Assembly: GCA_003497135.1 (NCBI GenBank)
Contig: DNKR01000049.1
Coordinates: 2,516-52,010, forward strand
Direction of reading: 5' to 3'
Source: Candidatus Uhrbacteria bacterium
GTDB lineage: Bacteria > Patescibacteriota > Patescibacteriia > UBA9934 > UBA9568
DNA length: 49,495 nt
Shown here piece after piece: positions 9,340 through 46,529 of the stretch. The notes beneath the pieces are model-generated. The model was given only the letters and a program-made list of their open reading frames with translations. It did not search any database and was not told where the DNA came from. Numbering within the stretch: the first letter of the stretch is position 1; each line of letters begins with the position of its first letter. Made by a program: the position numbers and the translations under genes.

Positions 9340-10389
9340 ATGCTAAACAGTATTTTAGGTAGGTTTTCTAAGGATTTAGGCATTGATCTTGGCACTGCCA
9401 ATACTCTTGTTTATTCCAAAGAAAAGGGAATTATAATCAACGAGCCGTCAATCGTGGCTCTTAATACAAGGACGAATCAAATTATTGCCGTTGGCCGAAA
9501 CGCCAAAGACATGCTTGGCAAAACGCCTCCGCACATAGAGACAACCCGCCCTCTTTCAAAAGGCATTATTTCAGATTTTGAAGTTACGGAAAAAATGCTT
9601 AAATTTTTTATTGACAAAGCGCACGAGGATTCATTTACGATATTACCAAGACCAAGAGTCATAATCGGAATCCCAATGGGAATTACCGAGGTGGAAAGAA
9701 AGGCTGTGGAAGACGCGGTAATTTCCGCAGGGGCAAGGAGCGTTTCTCTTGTGCACGAACCAATGGCCGCTGCAATTGGCGCTCGCCTGCCTGTTACTGA
9801 TTCTGTCGGCAGCATGATTGTTGATATCGGCGGCGGCACAACAGAAATAGCTGTGCTTTCGCTTTCAGGAATTGTCACATGGAAATCACTGGATATCGCC
9901 GGAGATGAATTAACAAAAAATGTCATACAGTTCGCGCGAGACAAATATAATCTTTTGCTTGGAGAACGAGTTGCTGAAATGATTAAAATCAAAGCCGCTT
10001 CTGCAATAGAAATGGACGATAACATTGAACTGGAAATGCGCGGACGCGATCTGATTACCGGTTTGCCAAAAGAAATAATTGTGTCTGATTCAGAAATCAG
10101 AATCGCTATTTCAAGATCAATCAGCTCAATTATTCAGGCTATCAAAGCCACCCTAGAAATGACACCGCCGGAACTTGCAGCTGACATTTATGAGCGCGGA
10201 CTTGTGCTTTCAGGAGGCGGAGCTCTTTTGCGCGGAATAGACAAAGCAATTTCGCAGGAAACAGAAGTTCCTGTAAGAGTAGCTGATGACCCGCTTACAT
10301 GCGTTGTGCGAGGCGCTGGCGCCCTGCTTGATGTGCCAGCTCTGCTTGAAGATGTTTCATTGCCTCCTACAAGCGAACAGGAACTGTAA
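9340..10389 (+). CDS. mreB: Rod-shape determining actin homolog MreB
   Basis: DLGIDLGTANTLVY, VAVGRNAKDMLGKTP and MIVDIGGGTTEIAV are actin-fold phosphate motifs. Confidence 0.96.
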   Translation: MLNSILGRFSKDLGIDLGTANTLVYSKEKGIIINEPSIVALNTRTNQIIAVGRNAKDMLGKTPPHIETTRPLSKGIISDFEVTEKMLKFFIDKAHEDSFTILPRPRVIIGIPMGITEVERKAVEDAVISAGARSVSLVHEPMAAAIGARLPVTDSVGSMIVDIGGGTTEIAVLSLSGIVTWKSLDIAGDELTKNVIQFARDKYNLLLGERVAEMIKIKAASAIEMDDNIELEMRGRDLITGLPKEIIVSDSEIRIAISRSISSIIQAIKATLEMTPPELAADIYERGLVLSGGGALLRGIDKAISQETEVPVRVADDPLTCVVRGAGALLDVPALLEDVSLPPTSEQEL

Positions 10390-10393
10390 TCTT

Positions 10394-11203
10394 ATGCGAT
10401 ACGGTTCACAGCCATATTCGCGCAAACGAAAAATATATGTAATTTTTGCTTTGGCCGTAATTGCTGTTTTTTCGCTTTTAAAAATCAATCTTATTAATAA
10501 GGCTGCCCATTCCATTGGATCAGTTTTTTCTAAAACAGGTTCATCAACAGGCAAAAGTTTATTGTCTTTCGCATGCGGAAGAGATTTGGTTTTTGAAAAC
10601 GATCATTTGCGCAATTTGCTTAAGGAGAGTGCGATAGAAAAGGAAAACTACTATACTTTGCAAAATGAATATTCAAGCATTGTTTCGCAGTGTAAATTTT
10701 TATCAAAGAGCTCAATAAACGGAGTAACTTCAAGCATATACTCGCGTTCATCTCAAGCTGACCTTTCCAATACGGTATTCGCAGAAGCAGGAATCCAGCA
10801 AGGGATCACAACAGATCATGTGGCAATAATTGACGACGGTATCGTTGCTGGAAAAGTTGACGCTGTTGCTGACTTTGGCTCGCGCATAAATCTGCTTACG
10901 CATAAAGAAACTAAATTTGCCGCAACAATTATTTCATCAAACAAAACACTTGGCATTGTTGAAGGAAACGGAACACCTCTTTTACATATGAGATTTATTC
11001 CTGAAAACGCCCCAATTAGCGTAAACGATCTTGTAATAACAAGCGGACTTGAAGAAAATGTGCCATACGGCCTTGTTATTGGCGTGGTGAACTCAATCAA
11101 TTCTGATCCGGAAAAACCATTCAAAGAAGCCACAATTGAGCCGCTCTCGGACATGAGATACGAGACAATTGTAACGCTAATACTAAACAAACAGGGAATA
11201 TGA
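10394..11203 (+). CDS. mreC: Rod-shape protein MreC
   Basis: N-terminal TM, a coiled-coil segment (ENDHLRNLLKE), and a C-terminal beta domain with VITSGLEENVPYGLVIGVV. It lies directly after mreB. ATG at 10394 avoids the overlap with mreB. Confidence 0.85.
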   Translation: MRYGSQPYSRKRKIYVIFALAVIAVFSLLKINLINKAAHSIGSVFSKTGSSTGKSLLSFACGRDLVFENDHLRNLLKESAIEKENYYTLQNEYSSIVSQCKFLSKSSINGVTSSIYSRSSQADLSNTVFAEAGIQQGITTDHVAIIDDGIVAGKVDAVADFGSRINLLTHKETKFAATIISSNKTLGIVEGNGTPLLHMRFIPENAPISVNDLVITSGLEENVPYGLVIGVVNSINSDPEKPFKEATIEPLSDMRYETIVTLILNKQGI

Positions 11204-42292: not shown

Positions 42293-42302
42293 AATTCAAT
42301 AA

Positions 42303-42343
42303 TTAGCACTCTCAATTGTAGTCTGCTAATTTGATTTTGTCAA
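42303..42343 (-). promoter_or_regulatory. clpB promoter (TTGACA-17 nt-TACAAT) overlapping a CIRCE-like HrcA operator
   Basis: Plus strand 42303-42329 reads TTAGCACTC-N9-GTCTGCTAA, against the consensus TTAGCACTC-N9-GAGTGCTAA (2 mismatches in one arm). On the minus strand the -35 is at 42343-42338, and the -10 at 42320-42315 sits in the CIRCE spacer. Confidence 0.75.
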
Positions 42344-42480
42344 ACAAGTTATTGACAGGCATTGACTTTTCGGCAATTTTCTGCAAATATGCCTTACGAG
42401 GCCGCTTTCAACCAAAGGTCAGCCAACCCTGGAAGTACCCGGGGAGGTCAGCCGGCGGCTAGTCAAGGAGGGTCAGCCGC

Positions 42481-43089
42481 ATGGCAAGCCCCAATAGCCT
42501 CGCGCGACTTACGCGCGGCGATGAAATGCAGTTCTTCCTCAATCTCCAAAAAGCGGGATTCACACTCGAAGACATCCTCAAGCTCAACAGGAACCCAAGA
42601 GTGCTCGAGTCGATGCGGACAGGAATGCTCAACGATCCGAAATTCCAGACCCTAATCGACTGCGATGCTGCTCCGTACTGCCCGGGCGATTTGGAGATCA
42701 GAGCAAAGGATCAGCCCAAGTGCCGGGTGCGCGGGGAACTTGAATTCGACCCGTCAAAGGTCGCGCTCCACCTCGACGGTAGCCAGAAGAACGGGAAGCA
42801 AATCATCGGCAGAAAGTTGCTCAAGCTGCTTAAAAACCAAACAGTGGCTCTCCCTGCTAATGTCCTGGAACACCTCCTCGCCAACACGAACCTCATACCC
42901 GAGTCGTGGAAGCAGGATGAGTTGGGTCAAACCTTGGTTATTCACTTCTGTGGCACCATCTATAGTGATTCTATTGGTGGTCTGTATGTTCGGTCCCTGC
43001 GCTTTCTCAACAACCAGTGGGGCCAATACTACAGCTGTCTTGACCACTACTTCGGCGATGCTGGCCCAGCCGCGATCCTCATACCATAG
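42481..43089 (+). CDS. Hypothetical 202-aa protein encoded in a GC-rich island; no family recognised
   Basis: AAGGAGGG lies 8 nt upstream of the ATG. Of the three overlapping open frames here, only this one has a protein-like composition. It is followed by GC-rich hairpins. Confidence 0.7.
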   Translation: MASPNSLARLTRGDEMQFFLNLQKAGFTLEDILKLNRNPRVLESMRTGMLNDPKFQTLIDCDAAPYCPGDLEIRAKDQPKCRVRGELEFDPSKVALHLDGSQKNGKQIIGRKLLKLLKNQTVALPANVLEHLLANTNLIPESWKQDELGQTLVIHFCGTIYSDSIGGLYVRSLRFLNNQWGQYYSCLDHYFGDAGPAAILIP

Positions 43090-43105
43090 CCACGCTCTAG
43101 CTCTC

Positions 43106-43125
43106 GGCCAGTCTGCTAGCTGGCC
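43106..43125 (+). terminator. Hairpin GGCCAG-tctgctag-CTGGCC just after the island ORF
   Basis: 6-bp GC stem read directly. There is no U-tract. An alternative GCTAG/CTAGC pairing overlaps it. Confidence 0.35.
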
Positions 43126-43150
43126 CTAGCCGCGTCTGATGAAACGATCC

Positions 43151-43186
43151 AGAAGGGTCGCTCTCTCGGGTGCGGCTCTTCTGTTT
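43151..43186 (+). terminator. Putative terminator closing the GC-rich island
   Basis: AGAAGGGTCGC / GCGGCTCTTCT gives an 11-bp stem (two G-U pairs) with a 10-nt loop, followed by GTTT and the switch to AT-rich DNA. Confidence 0.45.
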
Positions 43187-43331
43187 AAATACTAGCGAAA
43201 ATAAGAAAAAAATGTTAAAATTCGACAATACTTAGGTTATTTTTGCAATAAACATACCAGATCATGTCGAATATTAAATTGAACGCGTGCAAAACGAAGT
43301 ATGCGTTTTTAGTCAGTTGAATATTTTGAAT

Positions 43332-44780: not shown

Positions 44781-46529
44781 ATGTCCCACACCCCAAACTA
44801 CGATTCCAAAGTCAAAGCCATTCTCGACGCGACAAAGCCGAGCGAGCGAGTTTGCGCTCTTACGGGCGAAAAATGGTTCATGGACGAGGAGGAAATCGCG
44901 TGGTACAAAAAGATTAATGTGCCGCCAGCAACGGTGTCACCATACACACGGGCTTGTTTAACTTATGCATGGGGAATAGGAGTGCAGTGGTGGTGGAATA
45001 AAGATTCACGAACCGGAAAACCACTACTTACATACATACACCCATCAACTGGTTACAAAGTTATGACCGATAATGACTGGTATTCTTGTGACTTTAGCCA
45101 AATTAATTATGAGATTAATTCAAACACACCAGTTCTTGAACAATTTCACAAATTATTATTAGAGATACCATTTCTGGCATCGCGAAACATGGTACAACCG
45201 ATTCGATCAATCGCAATGACTTCTGTTGGTGATCAAGATAGTTATTTTGTTACTGGTTGCAAATCTAAAAATGTTTTGTTTTCAACCGTTTCTTCTGAAG
45301 CGGAACAAAGTTCGGAACTTTATCAAAGCAAGTTTGTTACAGATTCGTTCAACATTGTTCATTCACGAAATATTCATAATTGCAAATACCTTCGCGAAAG
45401 TTCCGACTGCATAAACTGTTCGTTTTTGTTTGATTCGCATAATTGTGAGAATTGCTTCGGGGGAACAAACCTAAGGAACAGAAAATTTATATTTTTCAAT
45501 AAACAGCTTTCAGAACAAGAATATAATGAACAGATAAAAAACATTAACTTATCTTGCAGAAGCGAATTTGAAAAACAGTTAAACGATTTTGCTAAACTGA
45601 TGAAAACCGACACAATTTGGCCGGAAAATTTTAATGAAAACACAATTGAAAGCAGTGGTGAGTATCTAAAAGGTAGCATTAATTGCAAATCTTGTTATTT
45701 TGCAGAAAAGCTTCGCGATAGCGACGATTGCACATTCATGTTTCATATACCATCAGAATCGTGCTATTGCGTTCATGGAAGTGTTGGTGTTACAAATTGT
45801 TATTATTCAATTACACTAAAGTCTTCTGCAAATGTTCTCTTTAGTAATATCGTGGTTGACTCTCAAAATTTGGAATATTGTTTTAGTTGCTACTCCTGCA
45901 ATAATTGTTTTGGATGCGTTGGATTAAACCATAAATCTTTTTGTATTTTTAATAAGCAATATTCAGAAGATGAATACTGGAAAAAACTTGACGAAATAAA
46001 ATGTAAAATGCTTGAAGAAAATGACTACGGAAATTATGTGCCTGCAAAATGGTCAACAGGTTACATTCCAGAATCCCCAGTTGGAACTTTTATGTTAGGG
46101 GACATGAAAATAATTAAACAGATCGGCTCAAATATTTTTAACCCAAATGAGAACAATGCAACCGGAATTGAACTGGATCTAGCAAAAGAAGCAGTTAACA
46201 TAAGCGACATTCCTGATTGCATTGAAAAAATTGATATTGATATAAATGAATGGATTGGTAGGCCAATTTTTGACCCAGATTTAAACAGGCGCTTTGCTTA
46301 TATACGCCCAGAACTGGAATTTTACAAAAAGCATGAAATATTTCCACCAAACAAGCATTTTATTTCTCGCATGAAAAAACTATATTTTGGAGCAAATTCC
46401 TACAAATTTGAAGACTCGAAATGTAAAAAATGCAATAAAAGCATTATTGTTGCGAAAAACGCTGAATTTTCAGAACGAAATATTTATTGTAAACAATGCT
46501 ACCTAGAATATATTGAGCAAAACGGATAG
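44781..46529 (+). CDS. 582-aa cysteine-repeat protein of unknown function with a C-terminal CxxC...CxxC zinc ribbon
   Basis: Two Cys-rich modules (aa ~155-250 and ~295-400), each ending C.NCFG..(G)L..K.F.IFNKQ.SE.EY. An E.(W/F)YKK...PP motif occurs near both termini. CKKC...CKQC lies at the C-terminus. Confidence 0.8.
   Translation: MSHTPNYDSKVKAILDATKPSERVCALTGEKWFMDEEEIAWYKKINVPPATVSPYTRACLTYAWGIGVQWWWNKDSRTGKPLLTYIHPSTGYKVMTDNDWYSCDFSQINYEINSNTPVLEQFHKLLLEIPFLASRNMVQPIRSIAMTSVGDQDSYFVTGCKSKNVLFSTVSSEAEQSSELYQSKFVTDSFNIVHSRNIHNCKYLRESSDCINCSFLFDSHNCENCFGGTNLRNRKFIFFNKQLSEQEYNEQIKNINLSCRSEFEKQLNDFAKLMKTDTIWPENFNENTIESSGEYLKGSINCKSCYFAEKLRDSDDCTFMFHIPSESCYCVHGSVGVTNCYYSITLKSSANVLFSNIVVDSQNLEYCFSCYSCNNCFGCVGLNHKSFCIFNKQYSEDEYWKKLDEIKCKMLEENDYGNYVPAKWSTGYIPESPVGTFMLGDMKIIKQIGSNIFNPNENNATGIELDLAKEAVNISDIPDCIEKIDIDINEWIGRPIFDPDLNRRFAYIRPELEFYKKHEIFPPNKHFISRMKKLYFGANSYKFEDSKCKKCNKSIIVAKNAEFSERNIYCKQCYLEYIEQNG

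Follow-up and report, generated by a model that had tools for sequence, protein, structure and literature searches.

We analyzed a 49,495-nucleotide stretch of a Candidatus Uhrbacteria metagenome-assembled genome (MAG; contig DNKR01000049.1, positions 2,516 to 52,010; hereafter the window), in which a GC-rich block at 42385-43190 lies between clpB and tagA and carries one open reading frame (ORF) of 202 codons on the plus strand (42481-43089). An earlier note on this DNA had described a single-gene, foreign-looking unit with its own translation signals, encoding an unrecognised protein and representing either a recent horizontal acquisition or an assembly chimera. The description was correct, as composition, Shine-Dalgarno (SD) site and hairpins were all reproduced in our analysis. 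With regard to the origin of the block, we conclude that it very probably encodes a member of a family of variable (target) proteins that belong to diversity-generating retroelements (DGRs), the gene itself being separate from any such element here, and that its GC content is a property of this family.

Composition and boundaries of the block

The block is the most GC-rich of the whole window, with a GC content of 55.1% compared to a mean of 40.2% (standard deviation (sd) 2.7, maximum 49.1%) for equal-sized segments elsewhere (z = 5.5), in agreement with the sharp jump that had been claimed. Measured in 40-nt steps, GC content rises from 0.38 to 0.57 across 42361-42391 and falls from 0.53 to 0.20 across 43151-43181, consistent with the abrupt boundaries proposed near 42390 and 43185, and these edges match functional ones, the match to a model of the 5' leader of the gene starting at 42394 and a terminator-like hairpin ending at 43183 (both described below). 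The three long forward frames reported previously (42362-42655, 42481-43089 and 42665-43129) are all present. Codon usage, a check suggested in the earlier note, locates the anomaly of the 202-aa ORF at synonymous sites: GC content at the first, second and third codon positions (GC1/2/3) is 0.57/0.37/0.67, compared to 0.49/0.37/0.35 for the window ORFs of at least 150 aa (n = 34), which places its GC3 at z = 11 (sd 0.03, maximum 0.42). As a candidate islet, the block is compositionally atypical of its host on both measures (GC z = 5.5; GC3 z = 11).

Abrupt changes in composition at both edges, in a sequence that derives from a MAG, would also be seen if a fragment of a GC-rich organism had been joined into an AT-rich contig during assembly or binning. 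However, the Logan contigs of two sequencing runs, SRR6482348 (48.5 kb) and SRR446575 (49.5 kb), reproduce both junctions with 100% identity to the window, over 16,164 nt and 11,322 nt, respectively. The coincidence of the compositional edges with the start of the leader match (42394) and the end of the hairpin (43183) likewise speaks against a chimera, as does the same GC step around homologs in ~20 other, unrelated MAG assemblies. Chimerism is unlikely, and we give this explanation hardly any credence.

The encoded protein and its family

The 202-aa protein is small, lacks a signal peptide, transmembrane segment or Pfam domain, and matches no Pfam, PHROG, NCBIfam or PADLOC family. The structure model described below divides it into an N-terminal helical module (residues 1-57; 42481-42651), which is exchangeable within the family according to a comparison with a related locus (L002), and a conserved C-terminal alpha/beta domain (residues 58-202; 42652-43086). 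The corresponding NCBI third-party record, a hypothetical protein of a Candidatus Uhrbacteria MAG, is annotated from Met16 (187 aa). The longer start is the better supported, because L002 conserves codons 1-15 at the protein level while differing from them synonymously.

A word-indexed search of 5.8 billion proteins returned the window's own record and eight homologs, the closest of which is 51% identical. Seven of these are alike over the C-terminal ~145 residues at 43-51% identity (E 1e-25 to 1e-32), while P0009 (L002 181-996) matches over the first ~50 residues only. P0009 has its leader, its first ~50 residues and a related motif after the stop codon in common with the window gene; the 220 residues at its C-terminus show no relationship to the window protein and belong to no Pfam or PADLOC family, which points to a second cargo domain on the same expression module. 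A profile search of 1.84 billion cluster representatives expanded the family to 3,361 clusters (50% identity) at E ≤ 1e-3, including 625 at E ≤ 1e-30. Most family proteins are 150-250 aa long, and most relatives carry a different N-terminus, MTTxVVxDEQLG. Some contain 2-4 tandem domains; in P0010, P0011, P0012 and P0017, these are ~145-aa variable domains that each end in PAA(V/I)xx, resembling a DGR variable repeat (VR). When 138 family members were compared to Pfam, just scattered weak N-terminal matches were obtained, and the family profile found no relative among PDB sequences (best E = 0.38, an unrelated protein).

Structure prediction with AlphaFold2 from an alignment of these 138 sequences yielded a model with a predicted local distance difference test score (pLDDT) of 90.9 and a predicted TM score (pTM) of 0.79, replacing an earlier run on 8 sequences (pLDDT 70.5) that had given meaningless Foldseek matches. 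Helices are modelled at residues 12-57, followed in residues 58-202 by the element order b-b-a-a-b-b-b-b (b, strand; a, helix), with the VR forming the last strands. In the model, this order resembles the C-type lectin fold. The weak Foldseek matches comprised the C-terminal domain of Bdellovibrio Bd2740 (E = 0.14) and human C-type lectins (E ~3, TM 0.34-0.37).

Retroelement cassettes in relatives

Scanning 185,579 species genomes with the family alignment identified 19 loci, mostly in MAGs of Uhrbacteria and other Patescibacteria. At locus L004, the last ~125 nt of the homolog are repeated ~350 nt downstream, with nearly all mismatches at an A in the downstream copy, and beyond the repeat lie a small minus-strand ORF resembling bAvd and then a reverse transcriptase (RT; Pfam RVT_1, 2.6e-24, with motifs LGNLTSQ and YADD). 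Pairs of VR and template repeat (TR) of ~124 nt are found in five loci (L004, L006, L008, L009 and L010), the TR copy lying ~500 nt downstream, and in total 79 of 84 VR/TR mismatches fall on TR adenines. Avd follows the TR in each of the five (the L006 copy matches NCBIfam DivGenRetAVD at 2.6e-15), and the RT follows Avd wherever the contig continues. A gene followed by a TR with adenine mismatches, Avd and RT constitutes the architecture of a DGR. The similarity of P0002-P0008 to the window protein (45-51% identity, E down to 1e-32) extends over the VR columns, and P0008 is the target gene of L004; through such homologs to RT-linked relatives, the protein that the earlier note could not recognise is identified as a DGR variable protein.

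Two further observations concern diversification itself. First, L001 (Uhrbacteria GW2011_GWC2_53_7) and L009 (UBA10169) are 99.86% identical over 7,134 nt, and 9 of their 10 differences lie inside the 123-nt VR, all 9 at TR adenines; the pair provides direct evidence of natural, ongoing diversification. Second, among the 138 members, VR columns in which the TR codon has an A in position 1 or 2 show a mean entropy of 2.89 bits, compared to 1.08 bits for other VR columns and 1.69 bits for the rest of the domain. Together, these data define a large, Pfam-less family of DGR variable proteins, found mainly in Patescibacteria (the candidate phyla radiation, CPR).

In these relatives, the TR (~124 nt) downstream of the gene is transcribed, and the neighboring RT with Avd copies it to cDNA, placing random bases opposite template adenines. 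The cDNA then takes the place of the VR, which comprises the terminal 41 codons. In this way, ~20 residues exposed on the C-terminal beta strands of a small, soluble domain for binding are rewritten, while the TGG, CTN, GTN and CGN scaffold codons remain fixed.

The cassettes contain two additional conserved elements. In L006, L008, L009, L010, L003 and L001, the first ~50 nt after the stop codon hold a conserved motif, GCGCTTAGGGCYTTGGAACYTTGGGCAG...CTTTGCCC, directly after the VR, with a CTTNG periodicity of 7-8 nt; L002 has a related version. A peptide produced by stop-codon readthrough was considered and rejected, as the stops vary (TAG, TAA, TGA) and conservation is at the nucleotide level across frames. 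Because it is conserved across reading frames, the motif is an RNA or DNA element rather than a peptide, and it may serve as the target-recognition element of these DGRs. Directly after each TR (L004 1311-1360, L006 1302-1350, and the equivalent positions of L008, L009 and L010) lies a conserved hairpin, CTCTTCAT..CCCC(N)..GGGGAG..TTTGTTT, situated just before the minus-strand avd gene.

Several MAGs have two family genes (L018; also L010/L015 and L017/L018). The inverted second copy at L018 (7062-7236, minus, against 10355-10529, plus; 175 nt similar) was considered as a TR and dismissed as a paralog, since its mismatches are spread across all four bases. L006, which carries a complete CPR-type DGR cassette, belongs, like L013, L014 and L019, to MAGs titled 'uncultured Gammaproteobacteria' or 'Candidatus Binatia'; these titles may reflect mislabelling or mis-binning, or real spread beyond CPR. 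IMG/VR viral contigs contain no family member, and on this ground a phage origin was rejected.

The GC excess is a property of the family

We next compared the composition of family genes with that of their surroundings. In 21 of 24 loci, from hosts of 39-56% GC, the family gene exceeds its ±5-kb flanks in GC content by 4-17 points, and the mean GC3 excess over the host is +21 points. Within complete cassettes, the target gene has a GC3 of 0.78-0.92, compared to 0.52-0.62 for its own RT and 0.53-0.66 for its own Avd, which are near the host values. Pooled four-fold degenerate sites of the family outside the VR have A/C/G/T frequencies of.10/.435/.28/.18, compared to.23/.25/.24/.28 in the hosts and.15/.285/.34/.22 in the RT genes; the sense strand is thus C-enriched and A-depleted along the whole target gene. 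This family-wide synonymous bias, which sets the target apart even from the RT and Avd of its cassette, seems to be a new observation.

Several simple causes of the excess were considered. Amino-acid composition was rejected, given that GC2 equals the host value and the excess lies at GC3 and four-fold sites. High expression or codon optimisation is unlikely, as no other window ORF, those for ClpB and an ATP synthase subunit included, exceeds a GC3 of 0.42. Pure GC-biased gene conversion fits poorly with the strand asymmetry (C > G, T > A), and pure A-to-N erosion fits poorly with the fall in T. Finally, exchange among the sampled hosts was dismissed as the source, the family gene being more GC-rich than all of them.

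Since 21 of 24 loci show the same excess, and since it persists when the RT and Avd of the cassette serve as the reference, the GC content of the window copy is not evidence of recent transfer. At a GC3 of 0.67, the window copy is among the lower family values, its host is among the most AT-rich, and gene GC3 correlates with host GC3 across the family (r = 0.41). On these grounds, a long residence with partial drift towards the host is suggested.

These results bear directly on the proposal that a single gene from a GC-rich donor recently entered the interval between clpB and tagA, with amelioration still to come. A GC3 11 sd above the host ORFs, a strong SD site in a genome that hardly uses them (see below) and the sharp block boundaries are in keeping with such an event, and so is the distribution of the family: its members occupy many different neighborhoods, and distant relatives that retain the clpB ... 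tagA-gltX-M23 synteny have other genes in the slot and no family member. The composition argument, from which recent acquisition had been deduced, loses its force with the excess recurring across hosts of 39-56% GC, even beside host-like RT and Avd genes, and exchange among these hosts cannot yield it, as the family is more GC-rich than every one of them. In addition, the best homolog is just 51% identical, the low family value of GC3 (0.67) in an AT-rich host and its correlation with host GC3 fit a long residence better than a recent arrival, and IMG/VR viral contigs are free of the family. As previously stated, no integrase, transposase or tRNA flanks the block: its neighbors are clpB and tagA, and the window contains no tRNA. 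A target-site duplication was sought by eye only; no flanking direct repeat was seen in this way, the repeat scan having reached copies at most 120 nt apart. Overall, we consider recent horizontal acquisition unlikely.

Databases contain no sibling genomes, the closest TagA homolog outside this organism being 47% identical. The order tagA-gltX-M23 peptidase is retained in two distant relatives, of which one also has a divergent clpB; between clpB and tagA, or upstream of tagA, the two have a PaaX_M-like and/or a LigT gene and no family member. Judging by these gene orders, the slot between clpB and tagA is apparently variable and the gene a lineage-specific occupant.

Two features of the surrounding sequence were recorded in passing. 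The clpB promoter on the minus strand (42302-42343) is near consensus (TTGACA-17-TACAAT, 42343 to 42315) and coincides in part with a CIRCE-like inverted repeat, TTAGCACTC-N9-GTCTGCTAA (42302-42330), in appearance a heat-shock operator of the HrcA type; the GC-rich block begins only ~50 nt away. A Cys-rich ORF of 582 aa (44781-46529, plus), situated beyond tagA, DUF5674 and an ORF of 113 aa, has many repeated C-x2-C / C-x-x-C-F motifs and no precomputed Pfam match.

A structured leader with a strong ribosome-binding site

The gene is preceded by a leader (42394-42480, plus) that marks the left edge of the block. The ~90 nt before the ATG are conserved at the DNA level with nine other loci, L002 included, and together with the N-terminal module they are 76% identical to L002 over 217 nt, beyond which the two genes are unrelated. 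RNAalifold and a structure assigned by hand agree on a family helix P1, in which GCCGCU pairs with AGCGGC, enclosing a two-part hairpin P2. In the window, P1 pairs GCCGCU (42401-42406) with GGCGGC (42454-42459) and P2 pairs CCCUGG (42427-42432) with CCGGGG (42439-42444), both on the plus strand and both contained in the window's own minimum-free-energy fold. Across the family, pairing amounts to 94% in P1 and to 83% in the inner P2, where 5 pairs have changed on both sides. For the structure as a whole (9 sequences), 79.6% of the cells pair, a value reached by 0 of 500 shuffles; 8 pairs are changed on both sides (5 of 500 shuffles), with slid controls much lower, and the covariation score is 0.287 (1 of 500).

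A covariance model built from the 9 leaders re-found its training set, matched the window at 42394-42483 with 62.7 bits and detected three leaders outside the training set (L011, 54.5 bits; L007, 28.8; L006, 20.9), all directly upstream of family genes. The next-best match in the 336 kb scanned (E = 0.08, L013) is also at the 5' end of a family gene; over this sequence, the leader is found solely upstream of this gene family. Rfam 15 gave no match to the window at the gathering score, and the leaders from six related loci gave none at E ≤ 1. Like the cis-regulatory 5' untranslated-region RNAs catalogued in Rfam, the leader is ~90 nt long, has two covariation-supported helices, ends in an SD site and is specific to one gene family; unlike them, it matches no Rfam 15 entry and is represented by only ~12 examples. 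A family-specific structured leader of this kind seems to be a new observation.

The octamer GGTCAGCC occurs three times in the leader (42417-42424, 42446-42453 and 42471-42478, plus), as had been reported. The first two copies are common to L002, and in the other subfamily the corresponding alignment columns read GCAAAACC / GCCAGCC. The canonical SD sequence AAGGAGG was likewise confirmed, at 42465-42471 with a spacing of 9 nt to the ATG, and AAGGAG is kept at the same position in the family leaders. Among the 34 window ORFs of at least 150 aa, the 202-aa ORF alone has a 6-mer SD match, and 3 of 34 have a 5-mer SD core near a plausible start; as the earlier note had recognised, the host hardly uses SD sites. 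Where initiation normally does without an SD site, as in these hosts, a strong one may simply offset the structure and high GC content of the 5' end. In the relatives, the sequence farther upstream contains a consensus promoter as well as a variable hairpin, with TTGAAA..GGCG/CGCC..TTTCAA as its closing sequences.

Two hairpins close the block, again in line with the initial description. Hairpin 1 (GGCCAGU / GCUGGCC; 43106-43125, plus) begins 17 nt past the stop codon, and hairpin 2 (43150-43183, plus), an inverted repeat with 12-bp arms followed by TTTAAAT, is terminator-like and forms the right edge of the block; a strict terminator scan did not call it as a terminator. The 3' region folds better than its own shuffles (z = -2.3). 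Leader, ORF and hairpins together form a complete unit of expression. The sequence GCTGGCCC(T)AGCCGCG is directly repeated at 43060-43074, in the end of the VR, and at 43119-43134, in the 3' arm of hairpin 1. Base pairing is also possible between the VR end (CTGGCCCAG) and the 5' arm of hairpin 1 (CTCGGCCAG), so that two mutually exclusive pairings result.

The variable repeat of the window copy

Alignment with the VRs of L004, L006, L008, L009 and L010 places the VR equivalent of the window gene in its last 41 codons (residues 162-202; 42964-43086, plus). The repeat is intact and in frame, and the fold is intact in the model. Its GC-rich end (GCTGGCCCAGCCGCGATCCTC; 43060-43080, plus) occupies the position of the initiation of mutagenic homing (IMH) site of DGR targets and aligns with CCNGCCGCGATCCTCGC, the non-mutated 3' block common to VR and TR of the relatives; it is partly repeated at 43119-43134. 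In functional DGR targets, the IMH is followed by a GC-rich inverted repeat (PMC5758913, PMC3240598). The window gene has the same layout, with a VR at its 3' end, the GC-rich end at 43060-43080 and a GC-rich hairpin at 43106-43125, and we infer that hairpin 1 would be the counterpart of the inverted repeat.

At the eight positions where the TRs of relatives have AAC or AAT, the window reads GGT CTC GGC TAC TAC AGC CAC GGC. Seven of these eight codons are NNC and one is NNT, compared to only 17% C at four-fold sites of the host. We take the NNC codons as the footprint that past adenine mutagenesis left in the gene.

Several observations weigh against the assignment of this copy to the DGR targets. 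Its status rests on homology and on the codon footprint in the VR. No TR, Avd or RT lies in ~59 kb around it: tblastn with RT and Avd queries against the window and 10 kb downstream gave nothing credible (best E = 0.02, inside a UvrD-like helicase), blastn found no TR in the 49.5-kb window, and a pattern in IUPAC code, which accepts an A besides the VR base at every site and recovers the TR in 4 of 5 known pairs, matched only the VR itself in the window at up to 3 mismatches. The 10 kb past the window end hold housekeeping genes only. The VR also departs from the family at codons that adenine mutagenesis cannot change: W182Q, W186C and its final two codons, which read ATA CCA where the family has GCN AGT. 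The CTTGGAACCTTGGGCAG motif found after the stop codon of RT-linked relatives is absent from the window copy, and its leader is without the family's consensus promoter and 5' hairpin, which were lost or never present. At the level of structure, Foldseek returned no significant neighbor in PDB or BFVD (none at E ≤ 1e-3 in PDB), so that of the homology and structure searches suggested in the earlier note, the former found relatives and the latter no significant match.

Of the five scaffold Trp positions, 175 and 191 are Phe in the window (as also in TRs of relatives), 182 is Gln and 186 is Cys; these replacements fit partial decay or a divergent template. With the post-stop motif gone, the window copy may no longer be a DGR substrate. 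Given the absence of TR, Avd and RT in ~59 kb, it is either the remote target of a DGR located elsewhere in a genome that is incompletely sampled, or an orphan.

As a remote target, the gene would still be active, and its diversification would depend on an RT, Avd and TR acting in trans from a distance of more than 50 kb or from a different contig. Chromosomal DGRs with non-adjacent and remote targets have been described (PMC5758913), and DGRs are enriched in CPR genomes (PMC8144416); the intact, in-frame VR, the seven NNC codons among eight AAC equivalents, and the GC-rich VR end with a GC-rich hairpin downstream, as in functional targets, are all in favor of continued activity. Conversely, the remote targets described by Wu et al. 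lie mainly outside their CPR set (PMC5758913), no TR or RT was found in ~59 kb, and the scaffold and IMH-end deviations together with the loss of the conserved post-stop motif argue for inactivity. The VR is identical in the two Logan run assemblies, which is weak evidence on activity, as both runs could derive from one sample and minor alleles are not visible in a consensus. We regard an active remote target as a real though somewhat doubtful possibility, and an orphan that is no longer diversified as slightly more likely.

Discussion

The element described here is of a known kind, a Patescibacteria DGR variable-protein gene detached from any retroelement. Surveys of DGRs assign CPR elements to a clade of their own (clade 2, Patescibacteria/CPR; Roux et al. 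2021), with targets that are usually without recognisable domains and modular-looking (PMC8144416), and most VRs in the CPR set of Wu et al. (2018) fall into UVR classes (UVR1-6) of unknown fold, with non-adjacent and remote targets on record (PMC5758913). The window protein resembles these CPR variable proteins in that it comes from the same host group, is small, has no Pfam domain and carries its VR at the extreme C-terminus. Its RT-linked homologs have TR, Avd, RT and adenine-specific mismatches, and N-termini in its family are modular. It differs from them in that the window copy has no TR, Avd or RT in ~59 kb and is without its relatives' post-stop motif, canonical promoter and 5' hairpin.

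A second point of reference is provided by variable proteins of solved structure, with which the window family has in common variable residues on the C-terminal strands of an alpha/beta domain, AAC-type codon design in its TRs and, in the window model, an element order (b-a-a-b-b-b-b) resembling the C-type lectin fold. Mtd of Bordetella phage BPP-1 and TvpA of Treponema denticola are solved DGR variable proteins with this fold, and the window protein is much smaller than either. The fold is also that of AvpA from Nanoarchaeota (PMC5006420) and TaqVP from Thermus aquaticus (PMC6328139). Unlike the solved proteins as a group, to which it has no sequence similarity (best PDB profile match E = 0.38, unrelated), the window protein yields a model without a significant Foldseek match, C-type lectins appearing at E ~3 and TM 0.34-0.37.

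With classical horizontally acquired islets, finally, the block shares a sharp composition break, atypical codons and a variable slot. In contrast to such islets, it has no mobility genes, tRNA or visible flanking repeats, and its compositional offset is a family-wide constant that is present beside host-like RT and Avd genes.

Over the whole unit, synonymous sites are rich in C and poor in A, and one may speculate that this reflects neither ancestry nor chance but is the footprint of a DGR-linked process reaching beyond the VR, in which case the structured leader would be a new riboregulator or an RNA related to RT/Avd. One candidate process would be that the full-length target transcript is now and then reverse-transcribed and enters gene conversion; another would be selection stripping adenines from any RNA that a mutagenic RT might copy. 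We consider this reading improbable; if true, leader-ORF-hairpin cassettes like the window orphan could be retro-copied, semi-autonomous units.

For Patescibacteria, the assignment to a DGR variable-protein family explains an apparent foreign island in an AT-rich CPR genome, and GC or codon-usage outliers in MAGs of this group should be checked against DGR target families before transfer or mis-assembly is called. A Pfam-less family of more than 3,000 clusters at 50% identity gains a confident structure model, a mapped variable surface and evidence of natural diversification. The synonymous C enrichment and A depletion of the targets, and their structured leader with a strong SD site in largely SD-free hosts, form a pair of observations that look new and are testable. 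If the compositional bias is mechanistic, it would offer new insight into how DGRs shape their target genes or are insulated from them.

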